Virus record (IMG/VR): IMGVR_UViG_3300014208_000036
Location: 24,794 to 88,793 of that record
Reading direction: 5' to 3' (one strand)
DNA from: a virus
Taxonomy: Duplodnaviria; Caudoviricetes
Length of the DNA stretch: 64,000 nt
A program made the translations under genes and the position numbers. The notes beneath the pieces are model-generated. The model searched no databases. It saw nothing but the letters and a program-made list of their open reading frames with translations, and was not told the DNA's origin. How positions within the stretch are numbered: the first letter of the stretch is position 1; each line of letters starts with the position of its first letter. Shown piece after piece: positions 19,293 to 24,650 of the stretch.

Positions 19293-19374
19293 GGCCCTCT
19301 GATGGAATGGCAGACATAGTGCACTTAAAATGCGCGGCCTAACAAGCATACGAGTTCGAATCTCGTGGGGGCTA
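19293..19374 (+). tRNA. tRNA-Leu(UAA)
   Basis: GTGCA-CTTAAAA-TGCGC, long V-arm. Confidence 0.9.
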
Positions 19375-19410
19375 CTAAGTGATGTTCAATAGTCTTAAAC
19401 ATGATTTAAT

Positions 19411-21030: not shown

Positions 21031-21105
21031 ATCCCCGTAGCATCAATGGACTAGAGTGCCTCGCTACGAACGAGGAGGTTGCAGGTTCGAATCCTGCCGG
21101 GGATG
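21031..21105 (+). tRNA. tRNA-Arg(ACG)
   Basis: ATCCCCG/CGGGGAT, CCTCG-CTACGAA-CGAGG. Confidence 0.92.
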
Positions 21106-21114
21106 CCGAATTTA

Positions 21115-21304: not shown

Positions 21305-21377
21305 GCTGGTTAAGCCGAACGGTGAGGCAGGTCTTTCATACGGACTGCGACGATGGGTTCGAATCCCTCAACCAGCA
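21305..21377 (+). tRNA. tRNA-Met/Ile2(CAU)
   Basis: GCTGGTT/AACCAGC, GGTCT-TTCATAC-GGACT; T-stem bulge. Confidence 0.8.
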
Positions 21378-21385
21378 CAAATCAT

Positions 21386-21464
21386 GCCCCGGTATCGGAC
21401 GGGTCTTCTAAGCCTGAGCACCGTAGTTGGATCGACGGGGGTTCGAATCCCTCCCGGGGTGCCA
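21386..21464 (+). tRNA. D-armless tRNA-Arg(UCU)-like RNA with long variable region
   Basis: GCCCCGG/CCGGGGT G CCA, 7-nt linker TATCGGA, CGGGT-CTTCTAA-GCCTG, 20-nt V region, GGGGG-TTCGAAT-CCCTC. Confidence 0.75.
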
Positions 21465-21474
21465 ACGAGTCGTT

Positions 21475-21921
21475 ATGCAAACAAAGATCTGTTCATTCGA
21501 TGGTGAATTTTCGTTTCTTTCGAATTTTTTTGAATCATCGATCAGGGTCGATGGTGAAAAATATCCCACAGTTGAACACGCGTACCAGGCATCAAAAACG
21601 TTCGATCCTTGGCAACGAAGGTTGATAAGGGAAGCGCCCACACCGGGAAAGGCAAAACGTCTTGGAAAAACAGTCAAGAAAAGGGACGATTGGGATGACA
21701 TAAGGATCGGTGTCATGGAGTCTTTGCTACGTGACAAATTCTCAAGCCCATTTTTAGCGCAAATGCTCATTGCAACCGATGACGCTACATTGATCGAAGG
21801 AAATACATGGGGTGATACATTTTGGGGCGTTTGTGGTGGAACAGGTGAGAATATGCTTGGAAAACTTTTGATGCAAATTCGAAGTGATCTGATCGTTGAT
21901 CAGGCGTCAAACGATGAATAA
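21475..21921 (+). CDS. NADAR (YbiA/DUF1768) family protein
   Basis: FLSNFF, YPTVEHAYQASK, AKRLGK, KFS, LIEGNTWGDTFWG, GENMLGKLLM. Confidence 0.92.
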   Translation: MQTKICSFDGEFSFLSNFFESSIRVDGEKYPTVEHAYQASKTFDPWQRRLIREAPTPGKAKRLGKTVKKRDDWDDIRIGVMESLLRDKFSSPFLAQMLIATDDATLIEGNTWGDTFWGVCGGTGENMLGKLLMQIRSDLIVDQASNDE

Positions 21922-22137: not shown

Positions 22138-22418
22138 GTAATGCACAGCGACCGCAGTTGAATTTTTCGGGTTCCGCAAGAATTATTTTCATGTATGACA
22201 TTGTCAAAAATGATTTTGAGGCGGCAATGCGTGATCTCGACCTGGTTATGATCACATCGATCAAGTCGATGAAGTTTGTTACAACGGATGCTGTTGTCAA
22301 GTTTATCAACGACCTTGACAAAGGTCGGCAAATCGTTGAAGCAGCGATAATTCAGAAACGTGATGTAGAGTTATTCGTTGATGTACGTGGTTCTGCACCT
22401 TTAGCTCAGTGGATTTAG
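22134..22418 (+). CDS. Hypothetical protein (3' end overlaps tRNA-Arg)
   Basis: ATGA overlap with previous ORF. Confidence 0.55.
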   Translation: MSNAQRPQLNFSGSARIIFMYDIVKNDFEAAMRDLDLVMITSIKSMKFVTTDAVVKFINDLDKGRQIVEAAIIQKRDVELFVDVRGSAPLAQWI

Positions 22419-22469
22419 AGCGACCGCCTTCGAAGCGGTTGGTCGGGGGTTCGAGTCCTTCAAGGTGCG
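22395..22469 (+). tRNA. tRNA-Arg(UCG)
   Basis: GCACCTT/AAGGTGC, ACCGC-CTTCGAA-GCGGT. Confidence 0.95.
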
Positions 22470-22471
22470 CA

Positions 22472-22630
22472 ATGAAATTATTCATTTTCATGTCAACCTT
22501 GATTCTTTCCTCATGCTACGGAGCGTGGGATATACCGGCGACGCCGCTTCATGATGAATGCTCGAACACAACATCAGTTGGTTACATTTACGTATATCCA
22601 TGTAAGATGAACGGAAATATTCAAAAATGA
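22472..22630 (+). CDS. Small putative lipoprotein
   Basis: MKLFIFMSTLILSSC lipobox-like. Confidence 0.55.
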   Translation: MKLFIFMSTLILSSCYGAWDIPATPLHDECSNTTSVGYIYVYPCKMNGNIQK

Positions 22631-23010
22631 ACGTGAAGCAGGTGATCGTGGTCCGTAAGGATTTAAACATGAGGAAGGGAAAAATCGCCGCGCAGGTTGC
22701 ACACGCAGCGATGAAATTCATCTTTGATGGAAATGTTGCGTCAAAATTGGATGAAATTTACGTAAAGCTATCGAAGGCTGAGACGAAGTGGGCTCGAGAA
22801 GGTTTCACAAAGATCGTTGTTTCCGTTGATTCCGAACAGGAGCTCTTGGACCTTTGCGAATCAGCACGAAGGAACAAGGTTGCATCGTACAAAATTATCG
22901 ATTCAGGTCGAACTGAGTTCGATAACGTTCCTACATTGACATGCGCCTCGTTCGGCCCAGATGATGAAAATCTCTTGGACAAGGTAACCGGGCATTTAAA
23001 GTTACTTTAA
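22627..23010 (+). CDS. pth2: Peptidyl-tRNA hydrolase, PTH2 family
   Basis: KQVIVVRKDLNMRKGKIAAQVAHA, KIVV, IIDSGRTEF, GP, VTGHLKLL. Confidence 0.93.
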   Translation: MNVKQVIVVRKDLNMRKGKIAAQVAHAAMKFIFDGNVASKLDEIYVKLSKAETKWAREGFTKIVVSVDSEQELLDLCESARRNKVASYKIIDSGRTEFDNVPTLTCASFGPDDENLLDKVTGHLKLL

Positions 23011-23497: not shown

Positions 23498-23584
23498 GGA
23501 AGGTTTGGGCATTGGAAGGCCCACCGGTCTTGAAAACCGACGTAGGTGATGAGCCTACTGCAAGTTCGACTCTTGCACCTTCCG
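23498..23584 (+). tRNA. tRNA-Ser(UGA)
   Basis: GGAAGGT/ACCTTCC G73, CCGGT-CTTGAAA-ACCGA, V-arm. Confidence 0.93.
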
Positions 23585-23585
23585 C

Positions 23586-23674
23586 CGATATTACGTGGCT
23601 GAGTGGATTAAGGCGGCCCGCAAGGGGCGAGGGGCATTGCCCCTCCACGGTGTTCGAATCCCGTCGTAATATCG
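23586..23674 (+). ncRNA. Anticodon-less class II tRNA mimic with 10-bp acceptor stem
   Basis: CGATATTACG/CGTAATATCG, Ser-like D-arm, GCCC-GCAAG-GGGC, V-arm GAGGGGC/GCCCCTC, T-arm TTCGAAT. Confidence 0.8.
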
Positions 23675-23921: not shown

Positions 23922-23993
23922 GCAATTGTAATTCAGTGGTAGAATGTCGCGTTGCCAACGCGAATGTCGAGGGTTCGAACCCCTCCGATTGCT
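23922..23993 (+). tRNA. tRNA-Gly(GCC)
   Basis: GCAATTG/CGATTGC U73, TCGCG-TTGCCAA-CGCGA. Confidence 0.95.
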
Positions 23994-24005
23994 CAGATAA
24001 AATTC

Positions 24006-24650
24006 ATGTATCATTACGTGTATAAGATCAAAAATCTTGTGAATGGTAAAATTTACGTTGGGAAACATTCAACTAACGATCTTGACGATGGTTACATGGG
24101 TAGTGGAAAACTCATAGCGAAGGCTATCGCTAAGCACGGAATCGAAAATTTTCAAAAAGAAATCATTAAAATGTTTTCCTCCTCTGAGGAGGCTTTTGAA
24201 TTTGAACATAATTTCGTTAATGAAGAGTTCATTATCAGAACTGACACCTATAACTTGATTGTCGGTGGTGATGGATTTTTTGCGATCAATTCAAATGAGA
24301 ATCTTCGTAAAGCGAAAAATAGAAAAGCTGCGTTAGCAATGAACATTATAACTTGGGCTGATCCTGAGTTTAGAAAACGAAAGAGTGCTGCATTAATTGC
24401 ACAAACGAAAAAGTTATTTGCTGAAGGAAAGTTAGTCGCTCCAGACTGGACAGGAAAATTTCATTCTGAAGAATCAAAAGTGAAAATTGGTTTAGCGAAT
24501 TCATTGCATCAACGTGGTGAAAAGAATTCGCAATTTGGAACCATTTGGATTACAAATGATGTTGAAAAATGTTCAAAACGAATCAATAAAAATGAAATAG
24601 ATGATTACGTTAAGTTAGGTTGGCGCCGCGGACGGAAAATGAAGTGGTAG
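24006..24650 (+). mobile_element. Seg-like GIY-YIG homing endonuclease with NUMOD3-like repeats
   Basis: YVYKIKNLVNGKIYVGKHST, YMGSG, YNLIVGG; lies between two tRNA-Gly genes. Confidence 0.9.

Follow-up and report, generated by a model that had tools for sequence, protein, structure and literature searches.

A putative AGA-reading arginine tRNA of an uncultured giant phage, from a widespread phage family with a predicted rewired core

According to a 2024 paper, all tRNAs that work in bacteria are cloverleaves, and arm length is the sole structural variable in cytosolic tRNAs (PMC11551756); a 2020 review of non-canonical tRNAs leaves phages unmentioned (PMC7609411). Allo-tRNAs and tRNA-Sec are bacterial tRNAs with 8/4 or 9/3 acceptor/T branches (PMC5389517). 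Like the arginine tRNA gene described here, these are natural tRNAs of bacteria or phages that lie off the standard 7/5 cloverleaf and that gene finders overlook or score wrongly, but they alter stem lengths and keep cloverleaf connectivity, whereas the gene described here keeps the 7/5 branches and appears to alter the connectivity of the core. The D-armless tRNAs of mitochondria share with it the lack of a D hairpin between the acceptor and anticodon stems, the reading of AGN-type codons and a shape that is not a cloverleaf. [quoted passage not shown] Cyanidioschyzon merolae has circularly permuted tRNA genes, with the 3′ half encoded ahead of the 5′ half, from which processing through a circular intermediate restores the cloverleaf (mentioned in PMC4090602 and PMC3400036). 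Here too the order of tRNA segments along the gene departs from cloverleaf order, but the gene is not circularly permuted, with the acceptor 5′ strand at its 5′ end and the acceptor 3′ strand and CCA at its 3′ end. As its ends are normal and no cut-and-join could restore a cloverleaf, the mature RNA itself must be non-cloverleaf. We found no description of this layout in the openly available full-text literature.

The gene lies in a 64,000-nt stretch of DNA (the window, the whole of the sequence analysed) taken from an 88.8-kb IMG/VR viral contig. CheckV puts the completeness of the contig at ∼23%, so that it represents only part of a very large phage. The gene is 79 nt long and sits inside a dense tRNA array, 7 nt downstream of a tRNA-Met gene and 10 nt upstream of an ORF encoding a NADAR domain (Table 1). 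Three small ORFs are scattered through the array; their products are the NADAR domain protein, a peptidyl-tRNA hydrolase of the archaeal/eukaryotic type (PTH2, 116.7 bits) and a GIY-YIG (SegE-like) homing endonuclease. A tRNA-Ser(UGA) gene of the window scores 51.2 bits on the Rfam tRNA-Sec model (gathering score 47), probably a cross-hit from a class II tRNA-Ser.

Read directly, the sequence has the canonical acceptor stem, UCU anticodon arm, T-arm, G73 and encoded CCA that a first-pass annotation had claimed for it: a 7-bp acceptor stem, an anticodon arm of 5 bp with a 7-nt loop containing U33, and a T-arm of 5 bp with a 7-nt loop. The first pair of the acceptor stem is a G1-U72 wobble, and two G-U pairs lie within the anticodon stem. 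The 7 nt TATCGGA are all that separates the acceptor and anticodon stems, and no D hairpin (10–13 paired with 22–25 around a D-loop) lies between position 9 and the anticodon arm. The 20 nt that follow the anticodon stem include TAGTTGGA, which contains a D-loop-like motif. The Rfam tRNA model RF00005, which matches the gene at full length (model positions 1–71, 34.3 bits against a gathering score of 29), agrees with this reading, since its alignment reduces the 13 D-arm positions to 2 nt and places a 17-nt insertion in the variable region. The observation itself is thus confirmed; the interpretation first placed on it is, as a whole, partly supported.

Table 1. Coordinates of the tRNA-Arg(UCU) gene, its parts, its neighbours and its relatives. 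Positions are in the window unless an accession or a locus handle (L) is given.
Feature	Position	Strand	Remark
tRNA-Arg(UCU) gene	21386..21464	+	
Acceptor stem, 5′ strand GCCCCGG	21386..21392	+	Pairs with 21454–21460; family acceptor helix 97.6–98.6% paired
U8 and A9 equivalents (TA)	21393..21394	+	Invariant in 65/65 aligned family members
T, CGG and A	21395..21399	+	CGG (21396–21398) is the D-stem-like strand (23–25 equivalent), continuing into the anticodon stem
A	21399	+	Occupies the place of position 26
Anticodon arm, stem CGGGT/GCCTG, loop CTTCTAA	21400..21416	+	Direct reading and Rfam alignment; stem covaries in the family; C32, U33, A37 and A38 invariant in the 20-member alignment, three of them preset by the search pattern in all rows except the DC31 phage copy
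Anticodon UCU (TCT)	21407..21409	+	Direct reading
4-nt connector AGCA, anticodon stem to returning D-stem strand	21417..21420	+	Predicted structural role; A-G-N-A in most members of the 76-nt subfamily, longer in other subfamilies
CCG and T	21421..21424	+	CCG (21421–21423) is the second D-stem-like strand (10–12 equivalent), pairing with 21396–21398; the T (13-like) is invariant, 65/65
D-loop equivalent AGTTGGA (A14, G15, UU, G18, G19, A20)	21425..21431	+	A14 invariant, 65/65; G15 (21426) covaries with C 21436
5-nt connector TCGAC to T-stem	21432..21436	+	Last base, C 21436, is the position-48 equivalent; penultimate A invariant in the 20-member alignment
T-arm GGGGG, TTCGAAT, CCCTC	21437..21453	+	T-stem 97.5–99% paired in the family
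Acceptor 3′ strand CCGGGGT, G73 (21461), CCA (21462–21464)	21454..21464	+	Direct reading
tRNA-Met	21305..21378		Upstream neighbour
ORF, NADAR domain	21475..21921	+	
Small ORF in array	22627..23010	+	
Small ORF in array	23952..24650	+	
tRNA-Arg(ACG)	21031..21107		Canonical example
tRNA-Arg(UCG)	22395..22470		Canonical example
tRNA-like gene, UAA anticodon	18603..18679	+	
tRNA-Leu(UAA)	19293..19375		Regular gene
tRNA-Ser(UGA)	23498..23586	+	
vB_EcoM_G17 tRNA-Arg(tct)	MK327931.1 81214..81290		Canonical example, annotated
121Q rewired copy	KM507819.1 73585..73666		GenBank label tRNA-Leu(taa)
Salmonella phage 7t3 rewired copy	MK773491.1 338204..338277		GenBank label tRNA-TERM
Felix O1 rewired copy	NC_005282.1 25953..26026		Under a feature named HNH endonuclease
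Copies on CAZIWB010000010.1	L102:1851-1926, L102:2951-3039		
80–81-nt subfamily, examples	L006:3917-3996, L015:901-981, L062:12344-12423		
Model hits with other anticodons	L014:4321-4397, L039:6975-7055, L047:1967-2046, L042:6158-6238		
Model hits with other anticodons	L037:743-823, L042:5301-5379, L006:4510-4584, L037:1562-1638		

Homologues with the same topology, on which the first-pass annotation had made its reading depend, exist in dozens. A pattern scan of IMG/VR for a UCU or CCU anticodon loop, TTGGA and a T-loop at non-cloverleaf spacing identified 62 loci, which together with the window copy give 54 distinct sequences, and a covariance model identified 65; most members were found by the pattern, so that the conservation of TTGGA, the T-loop and the UCU/CCU loop is partly by construction. 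Two alignments were used: a plain MAFFT alignment of 20 members, and an alignment of the 65 model hits that was fitted to the model's structure, so that its pair counts are biased toward that structure. The acceptor stem has 7 pairs in 47 of the 54 sequences as parsed (two are mis-registered), with 97.6% of cells paired in the model-fitted alignment and double changes at all 7 pairs across the family, and acceptor sequences diverge widely among the 54 members. The anticodon and T stems are also paired, and like the acceptor stem they covary across the family. At the discriminator position 25 of the 54 have A, 24 have G and 5 have T, and CCA is encoded in 23. G1-U72, a pair unusual for elongator tRNAs, is the commonest first acceptor pair (21/54 by pattern, 23/65 by model, the window copy included).

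Covariance models of the rewired layout (R1 and R2) were built from the homologues, as the first-pass annotation had proposed. R2, made from 19 sequences with the window copy left out, matches the window copy over model positions 1–76 with 80.5 bits (E = 5e-23). The next-best match of R2 in the window scores 30.2 bits, and the window's canonical tRNAs score ∼30 bits or less; the match of the window copy is far beyond chance. The layout extends beyond Arg(UCU), as within these phage arrays the model also matches genes with the anticodons CAU, GAU, UAU (Ile), ACG, CCU and UCG (Table 1).

One subfamily is present in 271 cultured phage records, among them Salmonella phage Felix O1, Escherichia phage 121Q and many phages of Klebsiella, E. 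coli and Salmonella. These copies are mostly unannotated, or are named tRNA-OTHER, tRNA-TERM or tRNA-Leu. A megablast search of the window's region against cultured phages gave no match, and in a blastn search of the 79 nt against them the only true relative, and the nearest named one, was an unannotated gene of Limnohabitans phage DC31. Matches to Caulobacter phages in the same search were canonical tRNA-Arg(ACG) genes that have the T-arm alone in common. The closest copy overall lies on a 201-kb contig, CAZIWB010000010.1, binned to a Cellvibrionaceae MAG. Of the two copies on that contig, the closest is identical in its core from TATCGGA through the D-stem strand, and the other is a rewired Arg(ACG) with an extra hairpin. 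This contig may be a related giant phage binned into the MAG, or it may be a host clue. Among 185,579 bacterial species genomes scanned by pattern there were 34 matches. Rewired tRNAs account for 7 of the loci, most of which lie on small MAG contigs, and the matches in Acidobacteriaceae are not among them. The rewired family is mainly, though not demonstrably only, phage-borne.

The recurrence of the layout bears on whether the window copy might be a decayed pseudogene or an assembly artefact that has lost its D-arm. ARAGORN at default settings does not call the gene, its thermodynamic z-score is unremarkable, and another irregular tRNA-like gene lies close by. Against this, dozens of divergent phage sequences share the layout and show compensatory changes in each of its helices, and 271 finished phage genomes contain it as well. 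Because it recurs with compensatory changes, a one-off deletion is no explanation, and the assembly deletion that had been named as a possible undoing of the original reading is for practical purposes eliminated. We regard decay or misassembly as extremely improbable.

With a relaxed threshold ARAGORN reported a Leu(gag) tRNA with its anticodon at position 31, which we rejected; its stems pair poorly by eye, and both Rfam and the family back UCU. That the gene is missed by gene finders is only half true, because the Rfam tRNA model passes its threshold. The single-sequence minimum free energy fold is an irregular long hairpin (−28.4 kcal/mol, z = 0.70 against shuffles) and is uninformative on the real fold, while the proposed fold has −25.7 kcal/mol, so that energy alone does not favour the proposal. 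Unremarkable folding energies are common for unmodified tRNA sequences. The nearby tRNA-like gene is also missed by ARAGORN and matches Rfam with 34.9 bits over model positions 4–67 only. Its D-arm is normal, its anticodon is UAA (Leu type) and its variable arm is long, but the acceptor stem has only ∼4 bp; it is probably a decayed copy, because the window also contains a regular tRNA-Leu(UAA) gene.

The first-pass annotation had concluded that there is no D-arm, and this part did not hold. The CGG within the 7-nt linker pairs with the CCG just 5′ of the D-loop-like motif, yielding a short helix that encloses the anticodon arm. In the window copy it consists of three Watson-Crick pairs only, with a U-U mismatch at the fourth position. 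Other members form the helix with CTC/GAG, CCC/GGG, CAG/CTG, CTG/CAG, CAC/GTG or CAAG/CTTG, and family-wide its 5′ strand begins one base after U8-A9, with three bases that pair with the three just 5′ of the D-loop-like motif. The helix is paired in 98.3% of cells in the plain alignment and 95.9% in the model-fitted alignment, with double changes at all three pairs. CG, GC, UA and AU pairs occur in it, and two of the three positions show 4–5 pair types in the model-fitted alignment. For the whole structure 96.7% of cells are paired in the plain alignment versus 67.8% in shuffles, with 0/500 shuffles reaching the observed value, and 36–47% with slid partner strands; over both alignments the slid controls are 36–48% paired. 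RNAalifold recovers the helix de novo. By mutual information the helix pair 12–38 ranks third and the pairs 11–39 and 13–37 fall under the 0.6-bit cut; a mutual-information scan for additional tertiary pairs gave lineage-level signals only.

Since the 7-nt linker is one half of a covarying D-stem, the tRNA is not D-armless. The covariation suggests that an equivalent of the D-stem exists, stacked on the anticodon stem and with permuted connectivity. A truly D-armless RNA, with the 7 nt as a flexible connector, the variable region as a loop or a hairpin of its own and a flexible mitochondrial-like shape, would fit the absence of a D hairpin, and an engineered D-armless tRNA is usable by E. coli translation (PMC11551756). 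This reading is contradicted by the compensatory changes between the CGG of the connector and the CCG family-wide and by a covariation of the 15/48 type, described below, which points to a canonical core. The hairpin that it would place in the variable region (GTAG with CGAC in the window; columns 39–42 and 49–52 of the plain alignment) is unsupported and was rejected, being 67.5% paired against a shuffle mean of 66.7%, with its inner pairs mostly unpaired. We consider a D-armless RNA highly unlikely. The likeness to the mitochondrial D-armless type that had been drawn was misleading: the RNA has the covarying D-stem-like helix, the GG motif and a T-loop of the standard sequence TTCGAAT, and what differs is a permuted connectivity, with nothing lost.

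In a longer subfamily of 80–81 nt, U8-A9 is followed by two additional bases that in 16/18 members pair with the dinucleotide just after TTGGA, as AC/GT, GT/AC, CA/TG or GC/GC. These extra pairs would make the D-loop motif a bulge in a longer helix, which is then followed by a TGAAAAT connector. The window copy is without these pairs.

That the D-loop-like motif 3′ of the anticodon arm acts like a real D-loop, as had been suggested, finds support in the bases that follow the helix. Throughout the family these are an invariant T-A, a purine and (Y)YGG. The 15-like purine and the base before the T-stem are A/U in 57, G/C in 7 and U/G in 1 of the 65 sequences, a perfect covariation, and the window copy is among the seven G/C cases. 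These cases are spread over different subfamilies and different anticodons and are thus not a single inherited event. The covariation is the signature that a canonical R15-Y48 Levitt pair would leave, and the same 15/48 rule is obeyed by the two canonical Arg tRNAs of the window.

The base after GG follows the anticodon. It is A (A20) in 11/11 members with Arg anticodons that were found with this base unconstrained (UCG, ACG, CCU and the DC31 UCU), and it is U in all five members with GAU, UAU (Ile) or CAU. For ArgRS of E. coli, A20 is the principal identity base. The set as a whole comprises A20, C35, U36 or G36, and A73 or G73 (reviewed in PMC9976931). The window copy has A after GG (21431), C35 (21408), U36 (21409) and G73, and these bases argue against a decoding tRNA charged with another amino acid and recoding AGA, as might happen if SerRS or LeuRS recognised the long extra region. 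Such a recoding tRNA might be read from the extra region of 20 nt, as long as that of class II tRNAs, and from G73, which is also the discriminator of E. coli tRNA-Ser; yet the variable stem-loop is not formed, and A20 accompanies Arg anticodons in the family. Recoding of AGA is scarcely credible on this evidence. A class II tRNA, which requires a paired variable stem-loop, was rejected.

We identified 39 tRNAs on the contig with ARAGORN, covering all twenty amino acids and including Arg(ACG) and Arg(UCG). None of the 39 reads AGA or AGG, although a canonical tRNA-Arg(UCU) could sit elsewhere in the genome, of which the contig holds ∼23%. In 54 long ORFs, 28% of the Arg codons are AGA, more than any other, and 15% are AGG. 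The predicted tRNA-Arg(UCU) probably reads both AGA and AGG, and the rewired gene looks like the one that fills the only gap in the contig's Arg decoding set, apparently completing it.

A second line of evidence comes from the Asteriusvirus phages 121Q and G17. Their flanks are near-identical, and the very site that holds a canonical tRNA-Arg(UCU) in G17 is occupied by a rewired one in 121Q. This is an allelic replacement at one site, as would be expected if the rewired and canonical forms were functionally interchangeable. A link to the downstream NADAR gene was considered and rejected, as a rewired tRNA is found at 1/72 phage loci that encode NADAR relatives.

These results also bear on a non-decoding role, in which the tRNA-like RNA would serve as a processing signal of the array, or would divert tRNA-binding factors, host tRNA-targeting nucleases among them, as a decoy or sponge. 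A role of phage tRNAs in countering tRNA-targeting defences has been proposed (PMC10264068), and an unusual core might change recognition by tRNA-targeting enzymes. A decoy would not explain selection on the features of charging and decoding (the 7-bp acceptor, the A/G discriminator, the canonical anticodon loop, and A20 in members with Arg anticodons only), the replacement of a canonical tRNA-Arg(UCU) at one syntenic site, or the filling of the only gap in the contig's Arg decoding by the rewired gene. We judge a non-decoding RNA improbable. Very probably the window copy, which comes from an uncultured giant phage, is intact and encodes an arginine tRNA that reads AGA, one of a widespread phage family whose core is topologically rewired.

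The proposed chain would run from the acceptor 5′ strand through U8/A9, one D-stem strand (22–25 equivalent) and one base (26) into the anticodon arm, and then through a 4-nt connector, the other D-stem strand (10–13 equivalent), the D-loop and a 5-nt connector ending in C48 into the T-arm, the acceptor 3′ strand, G73 and CCA. Compared with the cloverleaf order of 10–13, D-loop, 22–25 and anticodon arm, the order here is the 22–25-like strand, an anticodon arm enclosed by the D-stem, the 10–13-like strand and the D-loop; the D hairpin is absent and the 'variable region' is 20 nt. The remaining features are those of a canonical class I tRNA-Arg(UCU) (RF00005; examples in Table 1): a 7-bp acceptor, an A/G discriminator, CCA, a 5-bp anticodon stem with a CUUCUAA loop, a 5-bp T-stem with a TTCGAAT loop, and U8, A14, R15/Y48, G18, G19 and A20.

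In the predicted fold the short helix would stack on the anticodon stem at the usual place of the D-stem, giving an arm of normal length. This arm would consist of 5 bp, a 1-by-4 junction and 3 bp plus U-U, layers that approximate the anticodon stem, position 26 and the D-stem of a normal tRNA. The relocated D-loop should still be able to make the contacts of G18/G19 with the T-loop, the U8-A14 pair and the 15–48 pair. As the canonical contacts remain reachable, a normal L-shape should result, with the chain threaded differently; we infer the docking of the D-loop on the T-loop, the usual core contacts and the L-shaped fold from the conserved sequence. The transcript would presumably be processed by RNase P, charged by host ArgRS via A20, C35, U36 and G73, and used for decoding on the ribosome.

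It is reasonably probable that tRNAs with the rewired core are functional elongators accepted by bacterial ArgRS, EF-Tu and ribosomes. In bacterial-type translation they would then be the first natural case of a topological isomer of the tRNA fold, unnoticed in hundreds of phages including Felix O1. Perhaps the rewiring is adaptive, in that an AGA decoder escapes host enzymes that recognise the ordinary D-arm or core (tRNA-targeting defence nucleases, decay pathways) while keeping recognition by ArgRS, an idea that we hold only tentatively and think rather unlikely.

The rewired tRNAs would offer a natural test of which features of the tRNA core are recognised by ArgRS, RNase P, EF-Tu, modification enzymes and the ribosome, and the layout could seed orthogonal tRNA scaffolds. 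The tRNA complements of phages are under-counted by annotation. If the family holds, the L-shape would be reachable in nature by more than one chain topology, and the tRNA fold would be less fixed than has been assumed.
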